DNA of 64,000 nucleotides, taken from positions 18,412-82,411 of the forward strand of contig DAOPPX010000001.1 of assembly GCA_035358715.1 (NCBI GenBank), read 5' to 3'. The position numbers and the translations under genes are program-made. Source of the stretch: Verrucomicrobiota bacterium. GTDB lineage: Bacteria > Verrucomicrobiota > Verrucomicrobiia > Limisphaerales > UBA8199. Each line of letters begins with the position of its first letter. Positions within the stretch are counted from its first letter, which is position 1. The notes under the pieces were generated by a model, which searched no databases, was not told the origin of the DNA, and worked only from the letters and a program-made list of their open reading frames with translations. Shown in pieces: positions 15,748 to 41,680 of this stretch.

Positions 15748-15749
15748 GG

Positions 15750-16178: not shown

Positions 16179-16321
16179 GCGATTGTTGGTTTGGCGGGCT
16201 ACTCGAAAATGAGCACCGGTTTCGGCTGGTGCGTGTTCTCTTTGTCCAGATGGTCCCTCAAAGCCCTCGGGCGTGCCCTGAACTCCAAAGCACGTGCGGC
16301 TCGGAGGCCTTTCGACCGCCT

Positions 16322-17458
16322 TCAAGCGGAGACCGCCGGGATCTGCGGAGGAGGAAAGGGGGGGTCACTGGCCGACCTTTCTCTAACCAGGCCTGAAGGA
16401 TCGTGTGCAGATCCTCCCACCGCTCCTGTTATCGAGCCGTTCTTTGCTTTTGGTACCGCGGCTCCAAGTCCAACGAAAACAGGCCTAATCCAGATGCGTT
16501 TAATCAGGAGGAGTTGTGGGCCATGGCGTTGATTACGCCAGTGGCCGCGCCGCCAATGTGCGTGTGGCGTGCGATGGGTGCCGGTCGGCGCGGGGTTCTC
16601 GTAGGTGATGCGGAAGTGTTCGCCGATAAAATTGGGTTTCCAGGTGGCCCGGCGGACAACTTTGCCGTTCTTCTTTTTGGCGGCGCGCAGAATGCGCTCG
16701 GAGGTCACAAGTTCCGGTTCGGCGGTCATGCCCAAAAGGATGTTGATGGACAGATGCGCGAGGAGGTTGACGGTGCTCTTATCCTGCTCGTGAGTGGTGT
16801 CAGACCAGCCGACCGACGAGAAGAGTTCGATATCAGCAGCCAACAGGTCTTTGACCTGAGTGCCGGGTATAGGGGTGCGCGAATCGTAATGCACGGGCCT
16901 GCCGTCCTCCCATGCCAGCATAGCGGCGATGAACAGCGGTTGGGGATTGGCGACAGTCAGCGGCGGCATCTGCCAGGCACCGATGCGAATCGGAGATCTG
17001 GCCACACAGCCGGCCGGGACGCTGGCAACCGTGAGAAAGGGAACGAGGCAGCCGAAATAGCGCAGACTGAATTCGGCAGGCAGCATGAAAAGCATGGCCG
17101 GCATGGGGAACCGAATCTCATCGAAGCGCAGGTCGTCAGGGGCCTCGGTATGGAGGAGGGCTTCGCAGAAATCGGCGGCGACGAAGTAGGTGGGAACTTG
17201 GTAGCGGATGAGTTGCGCGGCGGTCAGACGCAGGGAGGCGATGGTGACGTCCTGTGAGGGTTGGAGGCCGCGCTGGGCAGTTCTGGCCGCTGTGTAGGCC
17301 GAGAGCATGAACACCTCCGGGTGGGGGAAGCCGCGAGGGATGCTGAAATGTTTGGGACAGCAGAGCGCCCGCAAGGACGGAGATTCCTGGTCGATGCAGG
17401 CGAGGATCTCGTGCAGTGGCCAGCCGTGGAATTCGGCGCGGATGTTGCCTGGGGTCAT
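16322..17458 (-). CDS. hypothetical protein
   Basis: 378-aa ATG ORF, first gene after a 274-nt divergent gap. C-terminal basic HWRRGHWRNQRHG segment. The antisense ORF 16403..17257 looks like a shadow. Confidence 0.6.
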   Translation of the reverse strand: MTPGNIRAEFHGWPLHEILACIDQESPSLRALCCPKHFSIPRGFPHPEVFMLSAYTAARTAQRGLQPSQDVTIASLRLTAAQLIRYQVPTYFVAADFCEALLHTEAPDDLRFDEIRFPMPAMLFMLPAEFSLRYFGCLVPFLTVASVPAGCVARSPIRIGAWQMPPLTVANPQPLFIAAMLAWEDGRPVHYDSRTPIPGTQVKDLLAADIELFSSVGWSDTTHEQDKSTVNLLAHLSINILLGMTAEPELVTSERILRAAKKKNGKVVRRATWKPNFIGEHFRITYENPAPTGTHRTPHAHWRRGHWRNQRHGPQLLLIKRIWIRPVFVGLGAAVPKAKNGSITGAVGGSAHDPSGLVRERSASDPPFPPPQIPAVSA

Positions 17459-17732
17459 ATCAGAGCTGTGTGAGAATTGGCTGGTTGGCGAATAGACGAT
17501 CCGAAGCTTTCGGTTATAGATCTGTTTGGCCGCAGGCTTCGTGGCTGCGTGTTTGAGCCTTTTGCCACAAAAGCCAGGCTGCCGGCAGGCAAGTTGGCCT
17601 TATCTGGCGGGATGTTTGTCGGCTTTCTCCGTCACTTCCAACCGAGTGGCAGTTGCGGTAATTCGGTATTGGGTTGTCGCCTTTCCACGAAATCTGGATT
17701 TGCGAGAAGTCTTGTGGCAGTCTCCGCGCAAT

Positions 17733-18737
17733 ATGAGCCGACCGTGGACTGAAGCCGAAGTCCGGTTGCTCGGCGCAAAACCGGATTACGAGATTGGCCG
17801 GTTGGTTGGGCGGCCAGGCAAAGCCGTTTGGGCCAAGAGGCAAGCCCTGGGGATTGCCGCGCCGCCTTCCTTGGTTCGTCGTTGGACCGAGGAGGAGGAT
17901 CAGGTCGTGCTCGCGAAACCGCCTTTAGAGGCAGCAATGCTCCTGAATCGGACGGAGGAAGCCGTCAATATCCGCAGGAACAAATTGCGCAGAAAGCTCT
18001 CGCCTGAACAGACAGTGAGGCTGTTGAGCCCGGAGGAAGCCAGGCTGCGGATCGAGGTCCCCAGATATGATTCCAAGGAACAGGAGGAGAAGATGCGGTT
18101 TGTGGGCGGCCCGTATGCACCTCCACTCGTGCCCATTGGAGGCTGGTTGAAATGCGAACTGCGCGGCATGGTCCAAGTGGGCGGCTACAGCAACGGATTG
18201 ATTCCTTGGCCGGTCGCCGTGAACCATCCAAAGCAGATGATCTTGTGCGGGGACCTGGTGAAGGCGTTGAAAACAGAGTCGCGTGTGGCAGTCTGTTTCC
18301 ATTTTGGAATCTCGCCACAAATGGTCTCCGAATACAGACGGCGGCTGGGCATCGAACGTTTTACGGCCGGGAGCACGCGTCTCTTTTGGAGAAACGTGAA
18401 GCTCGCCGCTTCTGACGAGGCCAGGGCGAAGATGTCCCGGCAGCGTGAAGGCCGGCAGGACCTCATGACGCCCGCAGATCGGGAGCGGTTGCGCGAAATC
18501 CAGAGGCGTCCCAAATCAGAGGCATGGAAGGCGAAGATGGTTGAACGCTGGCAGAGGCGCTTTACGCTGCTTGGTAAACCGGACGAATGGACCGAAGAGG
18601 AACTCAAACTCATCGGCACCAGACCGGACCGCGAAGTCGCCAAACTACTGAATCGTTCGGTGCTGGCGGTAAAGGCTAAGAAATTTCAGTTGCAGAAGGC
18701 CCAGCAGGAGAAATCAAGCTTTCCAGGTTCAACTTAA
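17733..18737 (+). CDS. SANT/Myb-like repeat protein (putative DNA-binding regulator)
   Basis: 334 aa from ATG 17733. Three copies of a W-T-E-x-E pattern: RPWTEAEVRLLG, RRWTEEEDQVVL, DEWTEEELKLIG. One of only three plus-strand genes in the 12-60 kb block. Confidence 0.6.
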   Translation: MSRPWTEAEVRLLGAKPDYEIGRLVGRPGKAVWAKRQALGIAAPPSLVRRWTEEEDQVVLAKPPLEAAMLLNRTEEAVNIRRNKLRRKLSPEQTVRLLSPEEARLRIEVPRYDSKEQEEKMRFVGGPYAPPLVPIGGWLKCELRGMVQVGGYSNGLIPWPVAVNHPKQMILCGDLVKALKTESRVAVCFHFGISPQMVSEYRRRLGIERFTAGSTRLFWRNVKLAASDEARAKMSRQREGRQDLMTPADRERLREIQRRPKSEAWKAKMVERWQRRFTLLGKPDEWTEEELKLIGTRPDREVAKLLNRSVLAVKAKKFQLQKAQQEKSSFPGST

Positions 18738-19279
18738 ATGCCGTAAATGCGCTCATCATCACCGATGTAGAGATTGAACTCACCGCAGGCCCAAGCCGCT
18801 TCCGTAAGCTGGCGGCCAACATCGCCGATATCCTCGTCCCAAAAGCCCGAGCCATGGCGGTTGCGAGTGAGCCAGAAATCGTGTCCAGCCTCTTCAGCGC
18901 CAAGGCCGGAAGTCTCGATCAACGGCGCGTTGGTTCGTTGAAAGGCAGCGCAGTCGCTTGAAATCTTATTAAGGGTTTCAGACGCCATGTCCGCTATTGA
19001 GTAGTTCTTCTCCAGCGGGTCACCACCGGAGGGCGTGCTGTCATCGTTGCTGCACCAGAATGCGCAGGCGATGTATGCCAGCATGAAGTTGTCGAGCCTG
19101 CCCATGGCTTCCAGCGTGGCGGCGAGTCCTTGCGCCTCGTCCTGCTGGGTGTGCCTCAACTCCTGGATCGCTTCCGGCAGCTTGTCTCGCCAATGCCCGC
19201 TCTCAGCGAGCAAGCAGGATCCCACGCTGTAGAGGGCGCTCCATTGTCCGCCATGCCATTCCAGCAGCCTTTCGGCCAA
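18734..19279 (-). CDS. hypothetical protein
   Basis: 181-aa ORF with a TTG start. GHDFWLTRNRHGSGFWDED segment, recalled from phage/plasmid orphans but not verified. Confidence 0.5.
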   Translation of the reverse strand: MAERLLEWHGGQWSALYSVGSCLLAESGHWRDKLPEAIQELRHTQQDEAQGLAATLEAMGRLDNFMLAYIACAFWCSNDDSTPSGGDPLEKNYSIADMASETLNKISSDCAAFQRTNAPLIETSGLGAEEAGHDFWLTRNRHGSGFWDEDIGDVGRQLTEAAWACGEFNLYIGDDERIYGI

Positions 19280-19364
19280 TTTTGCGTGGGGTATTGCTTT
19301 CGTAAGTTGATCGGGTGGTATTTGTTACCGCCGAAATCAGGATTGCCCTTACCGGCAAATTCGC

Positions 19365-19616
19365 TTACCAGGTCTGCTCCCAGCGAATCCCGTAGTCTCC
19401 TGGATAAAACCAACCGCGTGCCAGGCCGTTGTAGCGGGCACGGTAAATGTCTTTGACGACAGCGCCGGTCGTGCCATCGCGCATGACGACAAGCAGTTTG
19501 CGCCCGTGCCGCCGTATCCAATCCTCCGGCAGGTGCGCGATGCACCAGGCCCATGCCTTCGGTCTGGCGCTTCGTGGAACGTGGTAACGTCTCAGTTCAG
19601 TAGCGCTCCGTGTCAT
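19365..19616 (-). CDS. hypothetical protein
   Basis: 83 aa from ATG 19616. The track start at 19667 is TTG and overlaps the upstream gene. Confidence 0.5.
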   Translation of the reverse strand: MTRSATELRRYHVPRSARPKAWAWCIAHLPEDWIRRHGRKLLVVMRDGTTGAVVKDIYRARYNGLARGWFYPGDYGIRWEQTW

Positions 19617-19645
19617 GGTGAAAACGGTTTCGGGAGGCGACAGGA

Positions 19646-20038
19646 TCAGCCCTGATAACCGGGGCAATGTTTGCTGGAATGCACCTTGGATTTATCCCCC
19701 AAGAGGCACGATTGACAACCCGGCGTCATGGGTTGGCCGCTCACATGCGCGCGGTCTTCTTTGACCCAGGCGTATTGAGTATTGATGTAATAGTGGAAGC
19801 CACGGGAATAGAGGCGGTCGCGCGGCACGATATTGTGTGGTCCCATTACCACAATTTCTCCTTTGGCATAGCCGCCATGAGTCTCATCAACCCGGGCACG
19901 AATCCTGCCCCGCATGAACTGGTTTCCTTCTCCTGGTTCGATCACCTCGATGACGGTGCATCGGGTGCAACCGCCAAAACCGTCGATCAACGCGGAAGCC
20001 GGTGCTCGATAATCGCTATGCGCGAAAATCCTGGGCAT
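19646..20038 (-). CDS. hypothetical protein
   Basis: 130-aa ATG ORF, 11 nt after the upstream stop. Confidence 0.55.
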   Translation of the reverse strand: MPRIFAHSDYRAPASALIDGFGGCTRCTVIEVIEPGEGNQFMRGRIRARVDETHGGYAKGEIVVMGPHNIVPRDRLYSRGFHYYINTQYAWVKEDRAHVSGQPMTPGCQSCLLGDKSKVHSSKHCPGYQG

Positions 20039-20049
20039 TGCAGAAACTG

Positions 20050-20382
20050 TTAGACGGCAATCGCGGTTCGATACGTGGTGAGGGCGTGGGCGTGGAAGCT
20101 CTTGAAGTCGGGACGTTTTTCGAAGGTGACCTTGAGTTCGGCCAGCACTCTCTGGGTTTCTTCAGTCGAGTTTCGTAGCGTGAGGCGAATCGGAGGCGTG
20201 TCACCAGTGAAGCGGATGGTGACCTCGAATGTCTGGCCAACTTGGATATGCTGCGCCTCTGCAATGGCCATGTCGATCAAGCTCGCAGCATCATGGAGTA
20301 ATTGCCAGTGACTGGGATCGGCCCGATGCTCTTTTAGACAGTCCCTGGCTTTTTCGAGAAGTCCGACATTGTATAGGCTCAT
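20050..20382 (-). CDS. hypothetical protein
   Basis: 110-aa ATG ORF. Confidence 0.55.
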   Translation of the reverse strand: MSLYNVGLLEKARDCLKEHRADPSHWQLLHDAASLIDMAIAEAQHIQVGQTFEVTIRFTGDTPPIRLTLRNSTEETQRVLAELKVTFEKRPDFKSFHAHALTTYRTAIAV

Positions 20383-20431
20383 AGTTATGTCTCTGTCCTC
20401 AAAGGTGGATCCGTCGTTGCGTCGCGAGAGG

Positions 20432-21526
20432 CTATAAGGATTTGCTCGCCGGTTTCTCGGTGTGGCCGCAATTCATGCACACAGCAAAGACCTCTTCGTT
20501 TTGGCCGCGGCTGGCTACTTGCCTCTCCCCTCGACAATTCGGACACGGTGCAGGCTGAATATGAACAGAGGCAAACAAGCGGTTCGGTCTGGTGCAGCAG
20601 GGACACGGAACTCCCAGCGGATGAACCGTCCAGCCCTTTGGCAGGTAGTCCTCCCCTCCACAACGCAACGCTCCGGGCAGGGTCGGTTCATCCAGCTTGC
20701 CACACCAATGACGCGCGTGGTCAAAACCCGCGCAGTGCTTTCTGTCCTTGCTGGAGCGCTGCCGGAAATGCTGGCAAGACTCACACGTCCTGGCGATATC
20801 AACAGGCCACGCGCTCATAATCTCAACTACCGCCATCGCATGGCGCACGTAGGGTTTGCGCTCCCCCTCGTCAATCTTGCTCTCGGGAATACTCCACGGC
20901 CCCAGAACGAAATTCTCACCGAAGGGATGCGACGGCGCGAACTGCGGGAGGATCTGTTTGCCAAGGATGTAGCCGACCACGTACCACTCCGCGCCCTGAA
21001 AAGGGAAACAGACTTTTCCCTCCTGCCGCTTCCCGTAGCACCGTGGCAAGCTGCCGACGCAGTAGATTCTTTCCTTGGCACAGGATTGTCCGGCCTGCCT
21101 TGTGCCCCGGAGGACCGCGTCCATCCCTCTGGTGTGCTGGCCGACGCTGACGTAACGGCAGCCATACCACGATTGCCCGTCAATGGTGACAATTACGGGG
21201 CGCACATCGCGACAACCGCAGGCTCTCAGCCAATCCACAAGCGTCAACGTGGGTGCGGTGCCGGGCGTGGACTGGTCGGCCCAGTAGAGTTGCGCCGTCC
21301 TGTCCAGCCAGAATTCGACAGTGCCGGTGGCGTTGGCGAGCTTAAGCCTTACCTGGTGCTTTGTGGCGTCTGTAACTTCGCACAACTGCCCAGCCCAATT
21401 GATTTTTCGCCCGATGTCGGGATGTTCCTTCATGATGCGTCCCTGATTCACAAACTCCAGTTTATCCAATGATGAGCCCCTGTGCATGGGGATGAGGTTT
21501 CTCTCGATCCGTCTCTGTCTGCTCAC
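20432..21526 (-). CDS. hypothetical protein with C-terminal multi-Cys (zinc-ribbon-like) region
   Basis: Up to 364 aa. GTG start at 21526; ATG alternatives at 21487 and 21433. C-terminus has CESC, CPCC, CPNC...CMNC. Confidence 0.6.
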   Translation of the reverse strand: MSRQRRIERNLIPMHRGSSLDKLEFVNQGRIMKEHPDIGRKINWAGQLCEVTDATKHQVRLKLANATGTVEFWLDRTAQLYWADQSTPGTAPTLTLVDWLRACGCRDVRPVIVTIDGQSWYGCRYVSVGQHTRGMDAVLRGTRQAGQSCAKERIYCVGSLPRCYGKRQEGKVCFPFQGAEWYVVGYILGKQILPQFAPSHPFGENFVLGPWSIPESKIDEGERKPYVRHAMAVVEIMSAWPVDIARTCESCQHFRQRSSKDRKHCAGFDHARHWCGKLDEPTLPGALRCGGEDYLPKGWTVHPLGVPCPCCTRPNRLFASVHIQPAPCPNCRGERQVASRGQNEEVFAVCMNCGHTEKPASKSL

Positions 21527-22026
21527 TAATCCACGTTGACGAGGATTTTCGATTTTCCGTCGCGAGTAATCCAGGTCCGCTCGCCACCGGCGTCATGGTG
21601 CGGCAAGCTGATGACGCAGTATTCGCCCCTCCAGTAACAATCGTAGTCAAAGCGCTGGTTACGCAGATTCACGGTTTCGTGTGGGTGGGTTTTGCAATAT
21701 TCAAAGATCTTTTGCTGCCAGGGTTTGCAGCTCGAACGGTGGGTCTTCAGAAAAGTCTCTGTAGGGATGGCCTCCCCCACAAGATAGCTTTTTCCTCCCG
21801 CGATGCTCTTGTCCCAGTTGGCATATTCGTCGGGCTCTTGAGCGTTGGTCCCCAGGCCGTACCGCTTCCACCACCACGACTCGCGCGTGCTGACGATGTA
21901 ATGGTTCTCCCAACGCAACGAGGCGTTGGCGGCTCTGCGGATATCGTCCAGCGTCGCGATGGCCGCCTGTGCCGGGGGCGCCGGGGGTGCATGGACTGCG
22001 ATCGGGAGTTCGAGTTCGCCATTCAT
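21526..22026 (-). CDS. hypothetical protein
   Basis: 166 aa from ATG 22026, 1 nt after the upstream TAA. The track ORF extends to 22086. Confidence 0.55.
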   Translation of the reverse strand: MNGELELPIAVHAPPAPPAQAAIATLDDIRRAANASLRWENHYIVSTRESWWWKRYGLGTNAQEPDEYANWDKSIAGGKSYLVGEAIPTETFLKTHRSSCKPWQQKIFEYCKTHPHETVNLRNQRFDYDCYWRGEYCVISLPHHDAGGERTWITRDGKSKILVNVD

Positions 22027-22027
22027 A

Positions 22028-22570
22028 TTATGCGCAGGAGGCTTCATGCCAGACCTTGGCGGGAATGCCCTCTTCATCCAAAGCACAGAGCAGGTTCAGG
22101 TTGCCGGCGTCGCCCCAGCCGGTCTCGAGGGTGAACAGGTTGGAAGCGCACACACCATGCAGTCCGGGGAAGACGGGGTTCTGAATGAATCGCGGCTGTC
22201 CGAAAAAGGTGAGGTACGGCAAGCGCACGTTGGGTCCGCCAGGAAGATAATAAGTCTCGGCGTCGGTTGTCGGGATAAACTCCACGGCGCCCCCGTCGGG
22301 CGCCCCACTGTCATTAGCGCCAGCAGGCATGAACCGCACCCGATAGCGGTGTCCGCCGAGCGATACCACCACTCCCTCGTGGTGGATAAGCCGACACCCG
22401 TCGTAATATAGGCGGGCTGGTCCGAACTCCGGCAGGCCGAAAACTGAATAGTCTTTTCCGCGAAAAGTGGGCTTTTCTCGGACGAAGGTTCCCTGGAGTG
22501 TGACGGGCTCCTTGGTCTCTAAAGCGGCGTCAACCGTTCGCAGGAGGATCCTGTTCATCTCTTTGCTCAT
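22028..22570 (-). CDS. hypothetical protein
   Basis: 180 aa from ATG 22570; the track ORF extends to 22684. No motif assigned. Confidence 0.5.
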   Translation of the reverse strand: MSKEMNRILLRTVDAALETKEPVTLQGTFVREKPTFRGKDYSVFGLPEFGPARLYYDGCRLIHHEGVVVSLGGHRYRVRFMPAGANDSGAPDGGAVEFIPTTDAETYYLPGGPNVRLPYLTFFGQPRFIQNPVFPGLHGVCASNLFTLETGWGDAGNLNLLCALDEEGIPAKVWHEASCA

Positions 22571-22841
22571 CTTTCGCCTTGTCCAGCGTGGTTCCCTCGA
22601 AGTCCACCCAGATCCAGCCCTCCACGTATGCGCCATTATCCGAGCCTTCGGACACCACGGCATCGTCGTCGAACTCGATTGCACCTTCCCGGCCGAGGCT
22701 CTCTCGGGCCATTTCCACGATCTGCTCCCGGCGCGGGTCGTCGAGGTGCTGTTCGGTCGCCTCGATTGCAGCGGTCAATAGGGCCGGCGGGTTTTGCACG
22801 GTCTTGGCCGCCGTGAGCAGGTCCTGAAACGTTTTGTTCAT
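22530..22841 (-). CDS. hypothetical acidic protein
   Basis: 103 aa from ATG 22841, 4 nt after the upstream stop. Confidence 0.5.
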   Translation of the reverse strand: MNKTFQDLLTAAKTVQNPPALLTAAIEATEQHLDDPRREQIVEMARESLGREGAIEFDDDAVVSEGSDNGAYVEGWIWVDFEGTTLDKAKDEQRDEQDPPANG

Positions 22842-22845
22842 ATTC

Positions 22846-23679
22846 TCAGGCTTGATTGGCCGTCCGCTGCTCGGGCGTTGGGGCAGCGGCATCGGCGGCT
22901 TTGAGGTTCGTTTTCAAATGCTCCACCAACTGTTGAGCGATGATCTGGGTAATGCCGTGCCGCTCAAGCCAAACCAGAACCTGGGCCAAAGAAGCCGCTC
23001 CCGGCCCGTTGTGTTCGGCCTGCCCGCAGCGGGCCAGTCGGCAGCCATAGTCACCGGTCAAAGCGTGATATTCCACATCCCCGAATTTCACGGGCAGGCT
23101 CCGTTCAGTGATGACGCCGCCTTTGACTTCCGCAAACCGCGCTTCGACCGGCCAGCCGTCCTCGCCAGTGCGCCCTTGCATGAGAAAGATGGCCCGACCG
23201 TCTTCGTGTTCGTACAGGGTGCCGGCGAGATGCAAAAGCTCTTTGTAAACCCGCGGGAAATCCAAGGGCATTTCCTGCAGCCAATCGTTGAAGTAACTGC
23301 GGCCGCAGACAGGCAAACCCAAGGCCTCGATATGGCGGCATTTCTCCGCCAGATGTTGGGTCGTCTGCCTCAATTGGTTCGCATCCATCACGGAGAAGGT
23401 GAAATGCTCGATGCTGATGCCTTTCCAGTAGATGTAACCCTGGTGGTCTCGGGTGACGTGCTCCACGCCGGCCAACCAAGGCTTGGTATATTGGCCGGAT
23501 GCCACGGCGTCGTAAACCCCACGAAATGCCCCAACCCCGTGAGGAGTAAGGTGGTTGTTGACGGCCGCCTGCACCAGCGACAAGTGGAACGGCTCCAGGT
23601 CGTTGCCATCTCGGGTGCGCTCGAGAATTTCGAGGCTCATCTCGATCATGCTTGGACCCTCTGTCGTAGTGGCGCTCAT
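22846..23679 (-). CDS. hypothetical protein
   Basis: 277-aa ATG ORF, 1 nt after the upstream TAA. Confidence 0.6.
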   Translation of the reverse strand: MSATTTEGPSMIEMSLEILERTRDGNDLEPFHLSLVQAAVNNHLTPHGVGAFRGVYDAVASGQYTKPWLAGVEHVTRDHQGYIYWKGISIEHFTFSVMDANQLRQTTQHLAEKCRHIEALGLPVCGRSYFNDWLQEMPLDFPRVYKELLHLAGTLYEHEDGRAIFLMQGRTGEDGWPVEARFAEVKGGVITERSLPVKFGDVEYHALTGDYGCRLARCGQAEHNGPGAASLAQVLVWLERHGITQIIAQQLVEHLKTNLKAADAAAPTPEQRTANQA

Positions 23680-23680
23680 G

Positions 23681-24073
23681 TTACGCGGTGCATGCCAGGA
23701 TGCGGTCGTAGCTTTCCTGCTCGGAAGTGGTGAGGACGAAAAGGTCCTTGAGCCGGGAAATCCCTTCCTGTTCGAGATAGCGTTGGAGCGACGGAACGGC
23801 CTTTCCGCTGCCGTTCAAGTAGCCGGCCAGATCTCCTATGTTAAGGTCCTCGCTGCTCTCAGCCCATGCCTTGCGGCCTTCCTGTGTGTTGCTGATCCAC
23901 TGCTCGACCGCCCGGGTGAGCCGTTGTATGGCTTCATCCTTGGTGTGTGCGACCGTGGTAAACTCAATTACCCGAAGGGCATCCACCAGCACACCATCCA
24001 GGCGAATGAAGCAAACTCGGACTTTCTTCATTTTGGCGATTTGTTTGGCGCTCGTTTTCATCGTTCGTCCCAT
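23681..24073 (-). CDS. hypothetical protein
   Basis: 130 aa from ATG 24073 (alternatives: ATG 24061, GTG 24085). Confidence 0.5.
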   Translation of the reverse strand: MGRTMKTSAKQIAKMKKVRVCFIRLDGVLVDALRVIEFTTVAHTKDEAIQRLTRAVEQWISNTQEGRKAWAESSEDLNIGDLAGYLNGSGKAVPSLQRYLEQEGISRLKDLFVLTTSEQESYDRILACTA

Positions 24074-24125
24074 TATCGGCGGCACAGGCGGGATGATGGT
24101 CGGCGGGCGGAAATGAGATTGCAGG

Positions 24126-24635
24126 CTAAGTCGTGGAAGTCCGGTCGGCAGCCTTGAGCATCTCGCCCACCGAAAGGGGTTGGGTCAGCGCTTCGTACGC
24201 GGCCTGTATTTTGAGGAATTCCTCATAGTCGCCGCCGAGGTCCGGGCGGGTTCTCTTGACCGCTGATCGGTAAGCCGCTTTGAGCTGGGCCTCAGTGAAG
24301 TCATCCGGCAAGCCCAGAACGGCGCGCGGTTCTTCCCGCGCCAGATACCCGAGGGTCTGTTTGCGGTATTCCTCGGGCATTTCCGTATAGAACACCGCCT
24401 GGTGACGGAGGCTGGCTGCGCTTCCGGAACGTTCCAGCCGGGCGCGGTCGAGCCGAATGGCCGGCAGATGATCCTCCATGAAGCCCTTGACGTCGATATG
24501 GGCCTTGGTCTTTCGAACGATGAAATAGAGTTCATACCAGACGCCTCCATTGGGCTTCCGCCATTTTCGGTAGAGGTGCTCGCCGATCGGGTGGGCGGTA
24601 CTAGGCTGGATGCTGTGTTGGGGGGTGTCGACCAT
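24126..24635 (-). CDS. J-domain-like protein (RPD instead of HPD)
   Basis: 169 aa. C-terminal AVLGLPDDFTEAQLKAAYRSAVKRTRPDLGGDYEEFLKIQAAYEAL matches J-domain helices II-III. Confidence 0.7.
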   Translation of the reverse strand: MVDTPQHSIQPSTAHPIGEHLYRKWRKPNGGVWYELYFIVRKTKAHIDVKGFMEDHLPAIRLDRARLERSGSAASLRHQAVFYTEMPEEYRKQTLGYLAREEPRAVLGLPDDFTEAQLKAAYRSAVKRTRPDLGGDYEEFLKIQAAYEALTQPLSVGEMLKAADRTSTT

Positions 24636-24791
24636 ACTTCTGGATCCCGTTCAATCGAACATTTCCTCGACCAATACGACGCGCATTCTCGCCAGACCGG
24701 TTTGCTGGGCGCAGCCAAGTCGAATCGAGTGGACGCAGTGATCGCCTCGAAACGGCTTTAGATCACGCCGCACTGGCCAGCCGACTGCCTT

Positions 24792-25223
24792 TCAAAATTC
24801 GTCAATGGATTTGCGCCGCTTGGGTTTGCCCAGGAAGGCCTCGTAGGTTGGTGCCCGGTGGACAGCGAGCGCTTCCGCTCGATGGTTCCCGTCCTGCAAC
24901 GTCCAGCCCCAGGCTTCATGGTAGAGCAATAGAACCGGGGGAAGCCGCTCGCCGCGTCGCAGTTGGCTGAGGTATTTGCGGACTCCGCGCCGGTAATGTC
25001 CCTTGCGGCAAAACGTCTGCCCGGCTTTGGGAAGATCAAGTTTCAAGGTCACGGGTCCTGCCCACAGATAATCGCCCGGATCGAAAGGCAGCGCGAAGGC
25101 TGTCCCCGGTTTGTGAAACCTGGAAAACCAGACTCCTGCCTCGCGCCACTCCTGCCATTTGCCCCGGAGGCTGCGGGCCGCGTCATGCGCGGTTTCAAAC
25201 ACGCGAGGTTTCTTCGCGCTCAC
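24792..25223 (-). CDS. ParB-like nuclease (ParB/Srx fold) domain protein
   Basis: PPVLLLYHEAWGWTLQDGNHRAEAL (DGxHR motif). GTG 25223 forms a GTGA overlap with the upstream stop; ATG 25256 is an alternative. The long track ORF to 25583 overlaps the radical SAM gene. Confidence 0.65.
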   Translation of the reverse strand: MSAKKPRVFETAHDAARSLRGKWQEWREAGVWFSRFHKPGTAFALPFDPGDYLWAGPVTLKLDLPKAGQTFCRKGHYRRGVRKYLSQLRRGERLPPVLLLYHEAWGWTLQDGNHRAEALAVHRAPTYEAFLGKPKRRKSIDEF

Positions 25224-25411
25224 AACCAGCCCACGGTTCGCCCGTTCATGTCCCATTGCTCTCCGATGAGCGAGGCGGCTTCGCGCCGGGTCAAATCGGC
25301 TTTGACCAGCTTGTCCTTCCCGTCGAAGACATCCCATCGCCCGCGGGGGTTTCTCTGCCGATACCAGTGGGGCGGGTTTGGGCTGGCAACCTTTTTCCGG
25401 CGCTTCTTCAT
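25220..25411 (-). CDS. small basic hypothetical protein
   Basis: 63 aa. ATGA overlap with the radical SAM stop. Confidence 0.5.
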   Translation of the reverse strand: MKKRRKKVASPNPPHWYRQRNPRGRWDVFDGKDKLVKADLTRREAASLIGEQWDMNGRTVGWL

Positions 25412-26535
25412 GCAGCCAATTCAACGGCTGGTTGCTCCACCCTCTCAAATTCTCTGAGCAGCGGTTCGAGTTTGGGCTTCTCGCGACGAAGCCACCGGCT
25501 GGCGAATCCGAGGCATCCTCGGCAGCGTTTGCCACCGTTGCAATTCCGGTGCAGCCGCTCTTCGGCCTGGGGGAACTGCTCATGCACCGCCTTCAGCAGT
25601 TCATAGCGCAGAGCGAATAAGCGCAAAGCGCCGCCCCGGATGTGCCCCAACGGTGCTCTGCCTCCGTAACAGCAGACATCGCGGATGCTGCCGTCGGGGT
25701 TAATGGTAAACTTGAGTTCTGGTGCGGGGTGGCAGAGCCCGTCTTGCTGGCCCATTCCATTCTTCAGTGCCCTGCCGGCGGGGCTGAGGCGTTCCGGCTC
25801 AGTCCACTTGGCGTCAACGCCAACGTTGCCGGATTTGATTCCTTCGAGCAGCAATGGGATAGCGTGATGCCCCGGCTGCATCAGGGCTGCGTCCCTGGTA
25901 TCATAATATTCCTCCTCGGACATACGCTCGCCGCACCCGTCACAGCGATGGCTGTTCTCCTCGCAAACCAAAGCTCCGCCGCATTGGCACAAGGGCTCAG
26001 GCAGATCGAACCATTCACAGGGATTTTCCAGGGCCTCCTGGAGGGCCCGCCGGCTGATGATGTGCTTTTCCCCCTTCCGGAACGCATCGTGCCAGATCGA
26101 GTTGGAGATGCGGATGCTCAATCTCTCGCGCGCAACGGATTCGCCGACGATGCCGGCAAACCGGCAGGTGTCCTTCCACGACCGGAGCCACCATCCGTTG
26201 GTGGTCATTTCCATTTCCAGATCCTGGCTCAAAGGGTGACGCCAAATGTAAGTATAGATAGCGGCAAAGCGTTCCAAATCCAGAGTTGGTTCACCGCCCA
26301 GGAGGTTGAGCCGGCTGCGGAAACCCCAGTCCCCGAAGGTCCTTGCGGCCAGGAGGACTTCATCGAGGACTTCGAACGCCATCCAGCCGGCATCCCCTTG
26401 GGGGGCGGCGCCAAACATGCAATGGGCGCAGGCGAAATTGCAGCGCTTGGTCAGGAGAAGGGTGAATGTGACCTCTCGATCCTCTCCGCAGGCGAGAGCG
26501 CTCCGCCATTCTTCGAGTTTACTGGCTTGGTTCAC
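25408..26535 (-). CDS. radical SAM protein with Cys-rich insert and SPASM/twitch-like C-terminal cysteines
   Basis: CNFACAHC (Cx3Cx2C), LLGGEPTL, TTNG. Insert CQCGGALVCEENSHRCDGCG. C-terminal CHPAPELKFTINPDGSIRDVCCYGG and CNGGKRCRGC. GTG 26535 gives a GTGA overlap with the AAA+ stop; ATG 26592 is an alternative. Confidence 0.85.
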   Translation of the reverse strand: MNQASKLEEWRSALACGEDREVTFTLLLTKRCNFACAHCMFGAAPQGDAGWMAFEVLDEVLLAARTFGDWGFRSRLNLLGGEPTLDLERFAAIYTYIWRHPLSQDLEMEMTTNGWWLRSWKDTCRFAGIVGESVARERLSIRISNSIWHDAFRKGEKHIISRRALQEALENPCEWFDLPEPLCQCGGALVCEENSHRCDGCGERMSEEEYYDTRDAALMQPGHHAIPLLLEGIKSGNVGVDAKWTEPERLSPAGRALKNGMGQQDGLCHPAPELKFTINPDGSIRDVCCYGGRAPLGHIRGGALRLFALRYELLKAVHEQFPQAEERLHRNCNGGKRCRGCLGFASRWLRREKPKLEPLLREFERVEQPAVELAA

Positions 26536-28154
26536 GCTTTCAGAGTTTCGCTGGCTTTGGCGCTGCCGTTCGGGCGCCACTTCAAGGCCCATACCAAATC
26601 CTCTTTCGTCACGGGCTTCCCTCTCTGGATTGCGAGCAGCTTAACCAGCTTCACCAGTTGACGGATGTCGCGGCCGGACAAGTGATGTTCTTGGGCGAAT
26701 TCCCGGTAGGCAGCGTCACAAAGGCCAACCTTTTGGATCTCGCCTTGAATGTGGAAAAGCTCTCTGCGCTCGTCGGGGTCAGGATACTGGTACTCCACGT
26801 GAACCAGCGCCCTGGAGCTGATGGCGTCGTCAATGGCGGTTCCCTTGTTGGTGGTCAGGAAACAAAGGCCGCTCAAATTTTCCAGCAACCTCAGGAAAAC
26901 GCCAACGATCGCGTTCTGAACGATGTCGTCGGCGCGGGCGCGCACAAAAACATCGGCCTCGTTGATCAGCAGGACAGCGTTCCAGCGCCGGGCACGCAGC
27001 AGGGCCTGGCGCAGATTCTCCTCCACCTCTGGGGGGCTGATTCCGAGTTGAGAACATTGCAGCTCATATAGCGGCCGGTGGTTCTGTTCGGCGAATACCT
27101 GAGCCGTCAGAGTCTTGCCCAAACCAGGGTCGCCCTTGAGAAGGACCAAGCATCCCCCGGTCTTGCCGGAGACAACATCCCGGTCTTTGAGCTCGAAGGC
27201 GTGCCGCAGCACCTCAAGCAACCGGCGGGTCTCCTGGGGAAGGACGAGGTAACCGTCAATATCATCCTGGTATTGATACGGCTTTAGATCGGCGACATGG
27301 GCAATGATTTCCGCATGGCCGACCAGGTCGTAGGCATAAACCAGTGGATGCTGCGGCATCTCCACTTCCCGTCCTTCCTCATTCCACTGGGAGACGTCCG
27401 CCACTTTCTCATCACCGGTGTCCTTGAGGTTGTGGTAATGGTCCATTACCGCCAAGCCGGGCAGATCGGGATTCTCCGGCAGGCGGTACGTCTCGGGCTT
27501 CCAGCTCCCTTCCGTGTCGCGGCTCTGGACCCAGCCGTCGGCGACAAACTGTTCCCCGGTTTGCGCATGGCATTCCTCGTAAAGCTTCCGGTGGTGGCGG
27601 TATGCAGTCAGCAGTTCGTCAGATTCCAAACGCAACCCGGATGCCTCGAGAATCTGCGCAAGGTTCCTGCCTCGCAGGTCCCGGTTGTAGAAATCGATGC
27701 TGACTTCCTTCCGCTGCCCCAGTTGCCAGGCGACCAGACGCAACCGGACGTGCGGCGCGGAATATCGTCCCCCGTTGTCCTCGCTCACGTTCTCAATCAC
27801 GTAGGGCAGCCAATGCCGCATCTCGTTGTTGTGAAGAAACACCCAATAATGGGGCAGCTTGCCCAGGCAAAGGATGAGCGCTTCCTTCAGTGCGCCGACG
27901 GACTTGATTTTGTTCAGCAACGGGTTTTCCTGAACCTCGATCAAGTTCCGCAACTGGCGCATGAGGCGGCTGATTTCCTTGGAAGGGTTCCGCAGCCTTT
28001 GGCAGGCCTCAAACAAGGTGCGCCGGTCCGGCTGCGGCAGAAACTGGTGGCCGACCTCCACAAAAGGTTGCTGGGCCCGCTTGGCGATATCGAGCAGGTC
28101 CTTCTTTTCCAGCTTGAGGCCGTGGAACAATTCCAGTGGGATTTGCAGTTGCAT
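26532..28154 (-). CDS. AAA+ ATPase with ~330-aa unassigned N-terminal domain
   Basis: 540 aa from ATG 28154. Walker A GDPGLGKT, Walker B VLLINEADVF, DDAISSRA. Confidence 0.85.
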   Translation of the reverse strand: MQLQIPLELFHGLKLEKKDLLDIAKRAQQPFVEVGHQFLPQPDRRTLFEACQRLRNPSKEISRLMRQLRNLIEVQENPLLNKIKSVGALKEALILCLGKLPHYWVFLHNNEMRHWLPYVIENVSEDNGGRYSAPHVRLRLVAWQLGQRKEVSIDFYNRDLRGRNLAQILEASGLRLESDELLTAYRHHRKLYEECHAQTGEQFVADGWVQSRDTEGSWKPETYRLPENPDLPGLAVMDHYHNLKDTGDEKVADVSQWNEEGREVEMPQHPLVYAYDLVGHAEIIAHVADLKPYQYQDDIDGYLVLPQETRRLLEVLRHAFELKDRDVVSGKTGGCLVLLKGDPGLGKTLTAQVFAEQNHRPLYELQCSQLGISPPEVEENLRQALLRARRWNAVLLINEADVFVRARADDIVQNAIVGVFLRLLENLSGLCFLTTNKGTAIDDAISSRALVHVEYQYPDPDERRELFHIQGEIQKVGLCDAAYREFAQEHHLSGRDIRQLVKLVKLLAIQRGKPVTKEDLVWALKWRPNGSAKASETLKA

Positions 28155-28177
28155 GATGTCCGACTCAGAGAACTCCT

Positions 28178-28453
28178 CTACCCCTTCGGCCGTGGAAGCG
28201 GTTTTCTGCCCCGCCGGGCTTTGGTCGCCTTGAGCACCTGCCTTTCCCGCCACACGCGATGCCGGGAGCAAACGAACAGGCGTTCCCCCCGCTCGGTTTT
28301 GGTTCGTTGGCTGTTCCAGTCCACGGCGGTTTCGCCGCAATACTCGACTCGCAGTCTCCGATTTCTGGTGAGGCTGACTTTGGCCCCGGCGGTCCCTTCG
28401 ACTATCTCCAGCGTTCCAAGGATCTCGTTACCTTCAGGCGACATGGCTTTCAT
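28178..28453 (-). CDS. hypothetical basic protein
   Basis: 91 aa from ATG 28453, 5 nt after the upstream TAA. Confidence 0.5.
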   Translation of the reverse strand: MKAMSPEGNEILGTLEIVEGTAGAKVSLTRNRRLRVEYCGETAVDWNSQRTKTERGERLFVCSRHRVWRERQVLKATKARRGRKPLPRPKG

Positions 28454-28458
28454 TGGCT

Positions 28459-29973
28459 TTAGGTTTCGTCCGATTCCAGCCTCCATTCGAGGAACTGCCG
28501 GTTCTGGTAGAGCTTGCGAATAGTCTCCGCGCAGGTGGCTTCAGACTGAAGCAGGCCAAACGGGTGGTGTTCAGGAGTGAGTCCGTAATAGCCGGCCTGC
28601 TCGTGCCGGGTGTGCCGCAGCACGTCTTCCACCCGATACGGCGGCGGCCCGGTTGGCGCCAGCGCCAGGATTTCGTCCCGCTGCGGACTATGCAGCGGGG
28701 CCAGGCGGCGCTCGAGATACGCGCAGAGATTTGTGAACCAGACTCTGTCGAACGGTTCGCGCTCTCCGCACGCTTGCGTTCCGTTGTGCAGGTAAGAAAG
28801 AAACCCAGGAGCCAGGCTGAATGGATCTTCTTGCGAGGTCAATTCCATCAAGGACTGGATCTCTGCCTTTGGCAGAAGATGATAACAGGTGCCCCATACC
28901 TGTGGCGGGAAATGCATCTGCACAGAGGGAACACAGTAATCGGCCTTGATGACATGTGCGGAAATCTGCGCTGCCGAACTCCAAAATGTGCTGAATCCGT
29001 TTTCGTCCAGGAGAAGACACTTTTGGCCCGCGAGCGGGACTACCTCCGTGATCTCGCTGAAGCCCGGAAAGCGGCCGCAAGTCAGGCGGCACTTCTGCAA
29101 GACATCTTTGGTGTCCTGCATTCTTTGTCGCAGCCGCGCCTCCAGGTGGGCCGGCAGATGCAACTTTTTCAGGAAAACTGGCGCTTTCGCTGCTTTGTGG
29201 TACCAAATGGCGGCACGATCAAAATCCACGCGCCGAGGCGGTTCCTCCGTCGGACTCTGGTTTCCAACCGGTATGCAATCCACCAGGCATTTGTCGAGGT
29301 CGGCCGGGCCGCTGAAAAGATAGGACTGAGCCTCCGTCTTCACCAAACAGGGGAATCGCCGGAGCAGTTGGCGGATAGGGGTGTGGTATAGTCCCAGGCG
29401 GTGGTCGGTGTTCGCCTGCTGGATTGCTGTTTCCAGCGCCGCCAGCGCTTCGTTCCAGCTTTGCACGCCGCAATACCGTGTTTGTCGCAGTGCCTCGAAG
29501 TTCTCCGTCACCCACGTTAAGGCCCCTTCGGTGCCAACCAGGTGTGGCCCCTCGCAAGTTTGGCTGCTGGGGAGTCGGTTCAACAAGGTGGCCTCCGGCG
29601 TGAGCAGATAGGCCCCCTGTAATTCCGCGTTCATATCGTGACCGTGGAAGAAGAGTTCATCGAGCAAGTAAAAGGTCGTCCCGTTGCGCAGCACCAGCAG
29701 CGTTACCTGTTTGGCGTTGGGAAATGGGCTGCGTGCGGCAGGCAAAACCCTGGCGTGGATAATCTCAAACGCAAGTATGCGGTTGTCCGGGTTGCCGGCG
29801 ATCCCCGTCGGCCTCCCCGCCTCGGGCACAACTTGGCCCCACAACTTCTGGAGCTCAGGAAATCGTTGGCAGACCGCTTGCAGGTCCGGCGACAGGCTCT
29901 TGCCTTGTGCTGCCAGGCGCCGCTGAAGCAGATGCGTCTGCGTCTCCAGCGCGTCGCGGAGGGAGAGGTTCAT
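28459..29973 (-). CDS. hypothetical protein
   Basis: 504-aa ATG ORF. No motif recognised. Confidence 0.65.
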   Translation of the reverse strand: MNLSLRDALETQTHLLQRRLAAQGKSLSPDLQAVCQRFPELQKLWGQVVPEAGRPTGIAGNPDNRILAFEIIHARVLPAARSPFPNAKQVTLLVLRNGTTFYLLDELFFHGHDMNAELQGAYLLTPEATLLNRLPSSQTCEGPHLVGTEGALTWVTENFEALRQTRYCGVQSWNEALAALETAIQQANTDHRLGLYHTPIRQLLRRFPCLVKTEAQSYLFSGPADLDKCLVDCIPVGNQSPTEEPPRRVDFDRAAIWYHKAAKAPVFLKKLHLPAHLEARLRQRMQDTKDVLQKCRLTCGRFPGFSEITEVVPLAGQKCLLLDENGFSTFWSSAAQISAHVIKADYCVPSVQMHFPPQVWGTCYHLLPKAEIQSLMELTSQEDPFSLAPGFLSYLHNGTQACGEREPFDRVWFTNLCAYLERRLAPLHSPQRDEILALAPTGPPPYRVEDVLRHTRHEQAGYYGLTPEHHPFGLLQSEATCAETIRKLYQNRQFLEWRLESDET

Positions 29974-29997
29974 GAATGCGGCTCCTGGCAGAAAGTA

Positions 29998-30186
29998 TCA
30001 GCCCTCGATCTGGAGCCCCTTCAGCGTCATTCGCTGACGGCCGGCACTGAGGGATTCTCTTGCCGAGACCACCCCGGTCTGCACAACGGTCAGGAATTCC
30101 TGGACCATCCTGCCGTGCTTGCGTTGCGCCACAATGACCGTGTCGCCTTCCTGGCAGTTGAATTGCATCACCGGCGTTCTTCTCAC
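29998..30186 (-). CDS. small hypothetical protein
   Basis: 62 aa (GTG 30186) or 56 aa (ATG 30168). Confidence 0.4.
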   Translation of the reverse strand: MRRTPVMQFNCQEGDTVIVAQRKHGRMVQEFLTVVQTGVVSARESLSAGRQRMTLKGLQIEG

Positions 30187-30214
30187 GCCTTATGTTTGCC
30201 GCCAAAGTCTGCGC

Positions 30215-30616
30215 TCAGAGCAGGACCGGGCGGGCGAACACGGCTGAGCCCTTCTTGACGAAGGTAAGGCGCACGTCGATCCCTTCGGCGCTGACCGGGA
30301 ATTGCCCGGTTTGAATCCCGCGGAACAACTCGACCAGTTCCGGCGATGACATCCGGTAGATGTATGGCCGGCCCGGCTCGATATCTTCAAAGAGCGCCAC
30401 CGCGCAGGAACTCCCCTTTGCGGCATAGGAGAAGCGGATTCGAGCAGAGAATTCAATGTTCTCTTGCAGCGTGACATTTGCGGGCGGCGATGCGTGACGG
30501 GGGAGCCCCACGACCCGGATGCCGGTTAGTCTGGGATCCGGCGCGCCGGGGTACCAGTAAAGGGGCTGGAAATACAATCGCCACCCCCTGCACGGCCTCT
30601 TGACCGCATCGTGCAT
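30215..30616 (-). CDS. hypothetical protein, first gene of the radical-SAM operon
   Basis: 133-aa ATG ORF following a 293-nt divergent intergenic region. Confidence 0.55.
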   Translation of the reverse strand: MHDAVKRPCRGWRLYFQPLYWYPGAPDPRLTGIRVVGLPRHASPPANVTLQENIEFSARIRFSYAAKGSSCAVALFEDIEPGRPYIYRMSSPELVELFRGIQTGQFPVSAEGIDVRLTFVKKGSAVFARPVLL

Positions 30617-30909
30617 GGATCACTCTTCGCAATGCTTTTGGACTGAAGCGCTGATCTTCATCTTCATCTTGTCGAGGTCGGCTGCATCACCCTGCAAGAC
30701 AGCGGATTCTGGGAGCCCAGTTAAGATTTGTTTGGCCAGGCTTACACAGGCCCGCCAATTCTGGTACGAGCGCCAAGCGGGAGTTGCCACGAGCCTTCTG
30801 GCACGCGCGGGCTGTGGATCAGCATACCGACATACCGACAAAGAAACCTTGTGAGCGATAACGCGTTCTGATTTAATTAGGACTGTTCGCAACAGCTGGC
30901 TTAACGGGA

Positions 30910-36128: not shown

Positions 36129-36496
36129 GAGTGCTGGTTAGAGATGGCCTCCAAGGCGCTGACAAGCCCCCGCACGTAATCCGGGTGTGTGACGTTGACT
36201 CCCGCACAAGCGTGTGCCAGCACCACAGCTTCCACCCCATCAATCGCGGAATTATGATTGGCACGGTGTTCCGCCCCAAAACCAGCTTCTGCTTCGGTGA
36301 TGTGAAGTGTGGATTTGACGGCGCCGCCGCCCCTGCCATCGAGTTGCAAGGAGATGCTGTCAGCGGCGAGATGGAGTTCGATGCTTTTCACGGTTTGTTT
36401 GAGGTCCCCGTCGCGCCGGAGCGGACTGGCCTGTCTCCACCGTCGGATTTGAATACCCCGGTTTTGGCTCCCGCGATTGCATTCCTGTTGCATCAC
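36125..36496 (-). CDS. hypothetical protein
   Basis: 123-aa ATG ORF with ATGA overlap to the ligA stop. Confidence 0.55.
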   Translation of the reverse strand: MMQQECNRGSQNRGIQIRRWRQASPLRRDGDLKQTVKSIELHLAADSISLQLDGRGGGAVKSTLHITEAEAGFGAEHRANHNSAIDGVEAVVLAHACAGVNVTHPDYVRGLVSALEAISNQHS

Positions 36497-41449: not shown

Positions 41450-41680
41450 TCACGGACAGGTCTGCGCCAAGGCCGTCTTGAGCGTTTCTGTAGCTTTCGA
41501 TCGCGCTTTGGCCCAATTGGGCTCGTGGAAGCTGGCAATCGTCTCGCTTTGTTGACCGTCCTGGTCAAACCAATACGCCCATAGCCGGCAGCGGCCATTG
41601 GCCCGCTGATAAAGTTCAACTGTCGGAGAGGTGGCTCCGCCGGAATGCAGCGTTGTTCGATGGATAACCGACGATCTCAT
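41450..41680 (-). CDS. small hypothetical protein
   Basis: 76 aa. ATGA overlap with the PAPS-reductase-like gene. Confidence 0.5.
   Translation of the reverse strand: MRSSVIHRTTLHSGGATSPTVELYQRANGRCRLWAYWFDQDGQQSETIASFHEPNWAKARSKATETLKTALAQTCP

Follow-up and report, generated by a model that had tools for sequence, protein, structure and literature searches.

Do nine closely spaced genes on one strand of a verrucomicrobial contig encode a single system? The question is raised by positions 24126-30616 of a 64,000-nucleotide stretch of contig DAOPPX010000001.1 (hereafter the window, whose positions are used for all coordinates), where a radical S-adenosylmethionine (SAM) enzyme and an AAA+ ATPase are encoded next to each other, together with a ParB/sulfiredoxin (Srx)-like protein, a J-like protein and several orphans. 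A first-pass annotation had read the interval as a nine-gene operon and as a candidate modification-based conflict system. We compared the interval to its relatives and find that the radical SAM, 63-residue, 504-residue, ParB-like and J-like genes, together with D12 methylase genes found in some relatives, are separable modules on a conserved backbone. In the explanation that we consider best, and hold with somewhat more conviction than doubt, the interval forms the start of a long, co-directional and modular array of accessory genes of large mobile elements, with a new family of radical SAM enzymes. The radical SAM gene, an optional cassette, belongs to a new mobile-element family that has so far been seen only in metagenomes.

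Gene content and boundaries of the array

All nine open reading frames (ORFs) lie on the minus strand where they had been placed at first pass, as confirmed by the ORF list and by independent gene calls on identical public contigs, which give the same nine-gene set. From the upstream end, followed by their continuation and by two features upstream of the array, they are as follows.

30215-30616, minus strand: 133-residue protein of unknown function, first of the array, facing a 293-nucleotide divergent intergenic region
29998-30186, minus strand: ORF of 62 residues (called as 56 residues), the least certain of the nine
28459-29973, minus strand: 504-residue orphan, usual in the backbone but optional
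28178-28453, minus strand: 91-residue basic protein, a backbone gene, 5 nucleotides after the 504-residue gene and 23 nucleotides before the AAA+ gene
26532-28154, minus strand: AAA+ ATPase of 540 residues (PF00004; AR9 gp082/phrog_29662 family)
25408-26592, minus strand: radical SAM enzyme of 394 residues, or 375 residues from the GTG at 26535 (PF04055); optional cassette
25220-25411, minus strand: 63-residue basic protein, overlapping both flanking genes
24792-25223, minus strand: ParB/sulfiredoxin-like protein of 143 residues, a motif-level call
24126-24635, minus strand: J-like protein of 169 residues with a C-terminal J-like domain (PF00226)
15067-24085, minus strand: continuation of the array, mostly orphan genes without Pfam matches, collinear with the related loci L036 and L037
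30910-35664, plus strand: 1584-residue immunoglobulin (Ig)/PPC repeat protein with long internal repeats, outside the array, between it and the LigA gene
36493-38475, minus strand: NAD-dependent DNA ligase (LigA), identified by its Pfam domains, anchoring the backbone upstream of the array

The GTGA and ATGA couplings described at first pass are present. The radical SAM stop codon overlaps the start of the 63-residue gene in an ATGA, and the 63-residue and ParB-like genes overlap in a GTGA, both read directly in the sequence; a further GTGA joins the AAA+ and radical SAM genes only if the latter starts at the GTG at 26535. This start is the probable one, in keeping with the 373-375 residues of relatives. 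The remaining intergenic gaps span 5-46 nucleotides, apart from 156 nucleotides before the J-like gene. When the genes are compared to those of relatives, third codon positions account for a share of 0.54-0.70 of the differences in eight genes (0.59 in the 133-residue gene) and for only 0.42 in the 62-residue ORF, which is the least certain gene for that reason.

The same-strand, closely packed genes run on downstream to approximately 15 kb, and the sole break is an opposite-strand gene at approximately 17733-18737. The 3' boundary of a nine-gene block is consequently arbitrary. At the upstream end, the divergent intergenic region (30617-30909) plausibly marks the real start of the array. Scanning for promoters and terminators was uninformative, with no sigma-70-like sites and with terminator-like hairpins near the shuffled expectation, and the window contains no tRNA genes.

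Gene order among close relatives

We compared 19 loci of the same clade, with AAA+ proteins approximately 68-100% identical, all of which include sequence beyond the 3' end of the AAA+ gene; L001, the copy on the source contig, was left out. In 13 of these loci (L002, L003 and L040-L050) the radical SAM gene is intact. It is apparently frameshifted in L054, possibly through an assembly error, and the count of 13 intact genes holds without this locus; in L024 it is rearranged at a contig end. Three loci (L036, L039 and L051) cleanly lack the gene, so that the order there runs from the AAA+ gene to the 63-residue and ParB-like genes, and in L037 both the radical SAM and the 63-residue genes are absent and the ParB-like gene directly follows the AAA+ gene. 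In L063, represented by five contigs, the N-terminus of the radical SAM enzyme is fused in-frame to a D12 methylase and the 63-residue and ParB-like genes are deleted, probably as a deletion scar. The fusion protein (P0011, 6001-7419 in L063) carries the cluster and SAM motifs joined to a D12-class adenine methylase, bringing together two modules that use SAM.

Other genes of the interval come and go as well. The 504-residue gene is missing in L039. L036 has an internal deletion in its AAA+ gene and a D12 methylase gene inserted exactly in the 156-nucleotide gap before the J-like gene. The J-like gene itself shows decay or loss in five loci, with an in-frame stop in L045, truncation in L047 and L048, and no copy in L049 or L037. 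The Ig/PPC gene is absent from the collinear loci L036, L037 and L063, where a 3'-phosphoadenosine-5'-phosphosulfate (PAPS)-reductase gene or short ORFs are found instead; it is a lineage-specific insertion.

Against this variation stands a conserved backbone with the order LigA ... 133-residue, (504-residue), 91-residue, AAA+, (ParB-like), 134-residue, 277-residue and 120-residue gene, and so on. LigA is 88% identical in L036, 76% in L037 and 59% in L007, a locus that also has a radical SAM relative. A search for co-occurrence in relatives and in divergent lineages failed to recover the nine genes as a single conserved multi-gene system. The discrete nine-gene operon proposed at first pass thus loses ground, since a 156-nucleotide gap, into which relatives have inserted a D12 methylase gene, precedes the J-like gene, and since the array continues to approximately 15 kb.

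Radical SAM and AAA+ loci outside the clade

Distant relatives of the radical SAM enzyme (27-36% identity) are encoded among many small, same-strand orphan genes in L007, L008, L010, L012-L014, L025 and L031. The AAA+ gene is absent at eight of the nine radical SAM loci outside the clade; within 10 kb of the eight distant loci we found no relative of the AAA+, 504-residue or ParB-like proteins, and an all-against-all comparison of their neighbors revealed no recurring partner and none in common with the window. Only L012 and L029 have a UvrD-like helicase gene nearby. Conversely, none of the 38 AAA+ loci outside the clade has a member of the radical SAM or 504-residue family within 5-7 kb. The adjacency of radical SAM, AAA+ and ParB-like genes is therefore kept in one clade and in the distant L029 only, a distribution that goes most of the way toward refuting the joint system of the first-pass annotation. 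The literature that we searched holds no published account of a radical SAM/AAA+ combination.

L029 is the exception among the loci outside the clade. Its radical SAM and AAA+ proteins are 39% and 50% identical to those of the window, and their genes overlap by 1 nucleotide (stop/start). Encoded within 9 kb are a homolog of the 504-residue protein (profile E 2e-43) and a member of the ParB-like family (E 1.3e-6), so that L029 alone repeats the 504-residue/AAA+/radical SAM/ParB-like set outside the clade. A UvrD-like helicase gene and pilin-like genes have been inserted in this locus, and other genes have moved.

Just upstream of LigA, the window encodes a 274-residue orphan (38512-39336). In L029, a 29%-identical homolog follows directly after the radical SAM gene (11086-11781 in that locus). 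This placement shows that related elements shuffle a shared gene pool.

The radical SAM enzyme

The protein falls into the radical SAM superfamily by its cluster cysteines C51, C55 and C58 (CxxxCxxC), by the SAM motif GGEPT at residues 99-103 and by its match to PF04055 (5e-10, 40.2 bits against a cut-off of 29.5). An alignment of 27 sequences shows five further invariant cysteines, C287, C307, C308, C357 and C360, with the spacing C287-x19-C307C308-x48-C357-xx-C360, which we take to resemble that of the twitch auxiliary-cluster ligands in BtrN. A Cys4, zinc-ribbon-like insert is variable and occurs in about half of the family. The family comprises 39 clusters, none of them named by any source and almost all from metagenome assemblies; the contigs that carry them look phage-like or are parts of large elements. 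Three of the distant loci are IMG/VR viral contigs; among GenBank phages we found no relative, and the sole match on plasmids is a weak match of the core to MoaA.

An AlphaFold model computed with 27 sequences reached a predicted local distance difference test score (pLDDT) of 84.7. Its top match in Foldseek is the peptide epimerase EpeE/YydG (E 1e-6, template-modeling (TM) scores 0.45/0.53), followed by anSME, ChlB, SkfB, CteB, SuiB and BtrN. The sequence profile likewise ranks YydG first in the PDB (2.7e-14), whereas viperin is matched only at 0.004 over 27 residues. The C-terminal cysteine set and the fold similarity place the enzyme in the twitch/SPASM class, to which all top Foldseek matches belong. 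Based on sequence and model, the enzyme represents a new family within this class, closest to peptide- and protein-modifying enzymes such as YydG/EpeE and anSME, and its C-terminal twitch-type domain is predicted to hold an auxiliary cluster.

Assignments to described families were considered and rejected. For viperin (NF038283) the score is 27.7 bits where the cut-off is 180, with the match limited to residues 45-137; for the MoaA GTP 3',8-cyclase (TIGR02666) it is 31.5 (cut-off 284), and for the YydG/EpeE family itself (TIGR04078) 17.3 (cut-off 300). These low scores, together with the ranking of peptide modifiers first by fold and profile, led us to reject a viperin, QueE or MoaA assignment. 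All NCBIfam scores fall far short of their cut-offs, and a check for housekeeping families, which had been suggested at first pass, places the enzyme in none of them.

We compared the enzyme to characterized members of its class. It has in common with YydG/EpeE from Bacillus subtilis (PDB 8ai1-8ai6), its best match by both profile and fold, a radical SAM core followed by a C-terminal domain with an auxiliary [4Fe-4S] cluster, predicted in the case of the window enzyme. The two proteins share only approximately 15% identity, however, and there is no YydF-like precursor gene nearby. The window enzyme further differs from YydG/EpeE by its Cys4 insert, its carriage on a giant element and its coupling to an AAA+ gene. 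Neither Pfam nor NCBIfam matched a leader-recognition domain of the kind found with ribosomally synthesized and post-translationally modified peptides (RiPPs). The enzymes anSME, CteB, SkfB, SuiB, ChlB and BtrN belong to the same structural class, with cysteine-ligated auxiliary clusters following the radical SAM barrel. Full SPASM domains hold two clusters, whereas the invariant cysteines of the window enzyme fit a single, twitch-type cluster. Prokaryotic viperins (pVip) are likewise radical SAM enzymes from conflict-related loci, but the PADLOC match of the window enzyme to pVip is weak (7.6e-8), only the cluster-binding N-terminus aligns, and the window locus has no kinase or nucleotide partner. 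To our knowledge, viperins lack a twitch-type cysteine domain.

We also considered the small basic proteins as substrates. Since L036, L039 and L051 encode the 63-residue protein but have no radical SAM gene, this protein is not a substrate dedicated to that enzyme, and RiPP-like roles for the 63- and 91-residue proteins are rejected on the ground that both persist without that gene. No precursor peptide gene both adjoins and co-occurs with the radical SAM gene, and no neighbor is conserved across the radical SAM loci.

The AAA+ ATPase

The AAA+ protein matches PF00004 (7.7e-14, 52.7 bits against a cut-off of 21.2), and its nearest sequences in the PDB are p97/Cdc48/NSF/Rpt. Its sequence is best described as a classical-clade AAA module following a conserved N-domain of approximately 300 residues. 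A PDB profile search and a Pfam scan of 12 members gave no match to this N-domain, which is conserved across the family and whose profile detects the AR9 protein at 9.7e-88.

The Walker A motif reads GDPGLGKT. Walker B reads LLINEAD in the window subclade and LLIDEAD in the wider family, and the position of pore loop 1 is occupied by an invariant QCSQLG across the family, with no aromatic residue. The protein thus lacks the canonical hhhhDE Walker B and the aromatic pore loop 1 of threading unfoldases. The Walker B asparagine is found only in the subclade that lies next to radical SAM and 504-residue genes (window, P0049, P0063 and P0067).

More than 1000 full-length homologs of the AAA+ protein were identified. 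The jumbo phages PBS1 and AR9 carry such homologs, as do 29 IMG/VR loci and 181 large plasmids, among them pMPPla107, pBASL58, Methylibium RPME01 and enterobacterial plasmids of the MOBH type. The window protein matches phrog_29662 at 6.7e-63 over residues 115-511, and in a tblastn search it is 30.8% identical to the PBS1/AR9 proteins over 91% of its length. The homology to AR9 gp082 and PBS1 gp276 (phrog_29662, annotated as 'ATP-dependent protease') is full-length and includes the N-domain (30-31% identity over 91%, E 7e-63). These phage proteins are uncharacterized, and no protease domain is evident in them. The gene for AR9 gp082 follows an annotated early promoter and has no radical SAM, 504-residue or ParB-like neighbor; the replacement of aspartate by asparagine in Walker B is again a feature of the window subclade. 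An assignment to IetAS- or TRIP13-type defense was rejected, as the similarity is to generic AAA sequences only.

On the approximately 293-kb MOBH plasmid p027_SK3a from E. coli (L059, 4106-8557 in that locus), parA, parB and a 161-residue gene precede an AAA+ homolog, and a second gene of the ParB/Spo0J family lies 2.5 kb downstream. An association of the AAA+ gene with ParB-family genes thus recurs in an unrelated element.

Other proteins of the array

Clade relatives of the 133-residue protein share 78-90% identity with it, compared with 56% for the L037 protein, and it has a weak match to phrog_7983 (7e-5). Similarity to the 62-residue ORF is fragmentary in relatives, and the ORF is absent in L039. 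The 91-residue protein is present in every clade locus that covers its position (65-89% identity) and matches no family. For the 504-residue protein, no match was obtained in Pfam, PHROG, PADLOC or NCBIfam, and a PDB profile search was empty. Its family consists of 23 clusters at 52-97% identity, with the L029 homolog at 27%. The Foldseek comparison suggested at first pass was run with an AlphaFold model of this protein, whose pLDDT is only 70, and gave nothing better than E 0.1 and a TM score of <0.15 in the PDB and BFVD.

The domain calls of the first-pass annotation hold in essence. The AAA+ protein and the radical SAM enzyme, with its Cys4 insert and twitch-type cysteines, stand as described there; the other two calls stand with qualification. 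The ParB-like protein has no Pfam match of its own. An exhaustive search for its family yielded only 40 representative clusters, and the family profile detects only sulfiredoxin (E 0.015) and ParB (E 0.15 and 1.3) in the PDB, with marginal statistics; ParB_N (PF02195) is matched by 3 of 27 members (best E 0.0012). The motif PPV...QDGNHR...A lies in the C-terminal half, and the N-terminal 80 residues are specific to the family. In the alignment, PPV...(Q)DG(N)HR...A...I-A coincides with the nucleotide-binding core of sulfiredoxin and ParB (PF02195), and unlike partition ParB proteins, the window protein has no helix-turn-helix or dimerization domain. A ParB/Srx-like assignment at the level of the motif thus seems reasonable but weak.

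The J-like protein matches PF00226 above threshold (3.5e-7, 30.7 bits against a cut-off of 27.8). The HPD tripeptide of J-domains is needed to stimulate Hsp70. Here it reads RPD (KRTRPDLGG), and RPD is conserved in every relative (L036, L039, L043, L051 and L054), making it doubtful that the protein recruits or activates host Hsp70. J-domain proteins and AAA+ chaperones occur sporadically in jumbo phages (Iyer et al. 2021, PMC7824862). The co-chaperones described there are likewise small, sporadic DnaJ-type proteins on giant elements, from which the J-like protein of the window differs by the RPD found in all of its relatives.

The element and its surroundings

Contigs that carry the backbone reach 187, 197 and 235 kb (Ga0209606_1000055, 187 kb; Ga0116239_10000098, 196.6 kb; ERZ25039512 contig_25506, 234.6 kb), and one relative is binned with a Verrucomicrobia genome. 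Besides the array, the window encodes the NAD-dependent ligase, several UvrD/DEAD-type helicases, methylases, an ATPase of the type II/type IV secretion system (T2SS/T4SS) type, a PAPS-reductase-like protein, an AcrVA2-like protein and two GmrSD proteins. Among 35 other window proteins, 20 PHROG families were matched, none of them named as a virion protein. We concluded that the region sits in a giant (approximately 200-kb) mobile element from uncultured bacteria, either a megaplasmid or a jumbo-phage-like element.

Downstream of the array, positions 1320-12213 hold a possible defense island, with the following genes.

1320-2027: WGR-domain protein
2973-4592: AAA ATPase
4702-5259: DUF1802 protein
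5363-6565: second AAA protein
6569-7312: metallophosphoesterase
7309-7899: RNase T-like exonuclease
7916-9781 and 9778-12213: two tandem GmrSD-like genes

The GmrSD genes lie in a patch of approximately 50% GC, compared with 57-61% elsewhere. An AcrVA2-like gene (PF26125) is located within the array at 16322-17458, and a homolog of its product (28% identity) is encoded in L010 (2309-3241 in that locus), 7 kb from the distant radical SAM relative. At 41677-43547, an N6-type methyltransferase gene is followed by a PAPS-reductase-like gene (phrog_424, 3.8e-19; no Pfam match) that overlaps its stop codon. Genes for PAPS reductase are also found beside LigA in L007, L036 and L063, and the E. coli MOBH plasmid has one close to its AAA+ gene. 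Finally, a T2SS/type IV pilus/T4SS-family ATPase is encoded at 46610-48217 (PF00437, 1.4e-101; phrog_19065, 5e-82), and a gene for an ATPase of the same class adjoins the AAA+ homolog on the Pseudomonas megaplasmid pMPPla107.

Possible functions and alternative explanations

How could an optional radical SAM cassette work in such an array? In the window lineage, the radical SAM gene would be an addition whose translation is coupled to that of the AAA+ gene. After the element enters the cell, the p97-like ATPase may remodel or hold a protein target, and the radical SAM enzyme could then use radical chemistry to epimerize, cross-link or oxidize an exposed peptide segment in a protein of the host or of the element, in the service of establishment, host takeover or counter-defense. 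The ParB/Srx-like, 63-residue and J-like proteins would act independently of this pair. The coupling is inferred because the GTGA overlap of the window has its counterpart in the 1-nucleotide overlap of L029, kept at 39-50% identity despite rearrangement. The modification of a residue within a protein by anSME parallels this scheme. Taken as a whole, we regard the mechanism as tentative and would sooner doubt than accept it. Its boldest version holds that the coupled AAA+/radical SAM pair is a new protein-modifying device of mobile elements, in which a remodeler presents a protein and the enzyme installs an irreversible modification such as a D-amino acid or a cross-link; this seems improbable to us. 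If true, the pair would disarm host defense or reprogram the host during establishment.

Several observations weigh against our interpretation. The radical SAM gene has been lost repeatedly while the AAA+ gene was kept, and the AAA+ protein is therefore independent of it. In L029, the two genes could be neighbors through the shared ancestry of related elements rather than for functional reasons. The combination of a Walker B asparagine with a pore loop devoid of aromatic residues makes threading, and even robust ATP hydrolysis, uncertain. For the radical SAM enzyme, the TM scores reach only 0.45-0.53, and small molecules and nucleotides are also among the substrates of twitch-type enzymes, as in the case of BtrN and MoaA. 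With regard to the element, genes for capsid, terminase, replication or relaxase proteins are absent from the window, and the clade was not found in IMG/VR.

A rival explanation is a pure mosaic, in which the radical SAM enzyme is self-sufficient and functionally unconnected with the AAA+, ParB-like and J-like proteins, and its position is an insertion accident at a permissive junction that was then inherited. Consistent with this, the enzyme is found alone at eight of nine loci outside the clade, presence and absence at the junction of the AAA+ and 63-residue genes is gene-sized, and none of the 38 AAA+ loci outside the clade has a radical SAM gene. An accident of insertion accounts less well for the overlap of the AAA+ and radical SAM genes in L029, which has outlasted insertions and gene movements, and the 4-nucleotide overlaps in the window point to co-translation. 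We consider a pure mosaic unlikely, if still deserving of real attention. A version of the first-pass proposal, a conflict system that modifies nucleotides, DNA or RNA with a ParB/Srx-like protein binding or cleaving nucleic acid, finds some echo in the MoaA and viperin models, which match the radical SAM core weakly, in the ParB/Srx motif, in the DNA methylases found at the corresponding position in relatives (L036 and the L063 fusion), and in the nearby methylases and PAPS-reductase-like gene. The viperin and MoaA scores are far below their cut-offs, however, fold and profile searches rank peptide-modifying enzymes first, the ParB-like gene persists in the absence of the radical SAM gene and vice versa, and most radical SAM relatives have no adjoining partner from nucleotide metabolism. 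The grouping of the enzyme with peptide- and protein-modifying twitch/SPASM enzymes thus weakens this idea, which we now judge distinctly improbable.

The setting of the locus might also suggest a host-protective, anti-phage or abortive-infection system akin to IetAS or the prokaryotic viperins. PADLOC indeed reports matches to IetA (9.6e-12), TRIP13 and pVip, and GmrSD and other defense-like genes lie in the same window. These matches span only the generic AAA and radical SAM cores, and the score for IteA in NCBIfam (NF042959) is 44.4 bits against a cut-off of 510, a shortfall similar in kind to that for viperin. We looked for an IetS partner and found no protease domain in any neighbor, and jumbo phages themselves carry the AAA+ family, with the AR9 gene placed behind an early promoter. 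We consider protection of the host very unlikely. Of the conflict system proposed at first pass, the mobile and conflict-related setting survives (AcrVA2-like, GmrSD, methylase and helicase genes are nearby), whereas the single nine-gene system does not.

Our preferred reading remains that of a modular accessory-gene array that includes a new radical SAM cassette. It carries a lesson for the annotation of mobile elements: same-strand packing and 4-nucleotide overlaps do not define a system, and here presence and absence in close relatives split a supposed operon into modules. Two uncharacterized protein families surface from this analysis, a twitch-type radical SAM family and an AAA+ family with an N-domain of its own. 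The former is undescribed but lies within a known enzyme class; the latter is cataloged (phrog_29662) yet uncharacterized. Radical SAM enzymes of mobile elements have repeatedly proved to be conflict effectors or sources of new chemistry, and an enzyme that resembles peptide modifiers and has no precursor gene of its own makes a reasonable target for biochemistry. The AAA+ protein, with its unexplained N-domain of approximately 300 residues, is among the more widespread unexplained proteins of giant elements, and its function is probably general to how giant mobile elements establish themselves.

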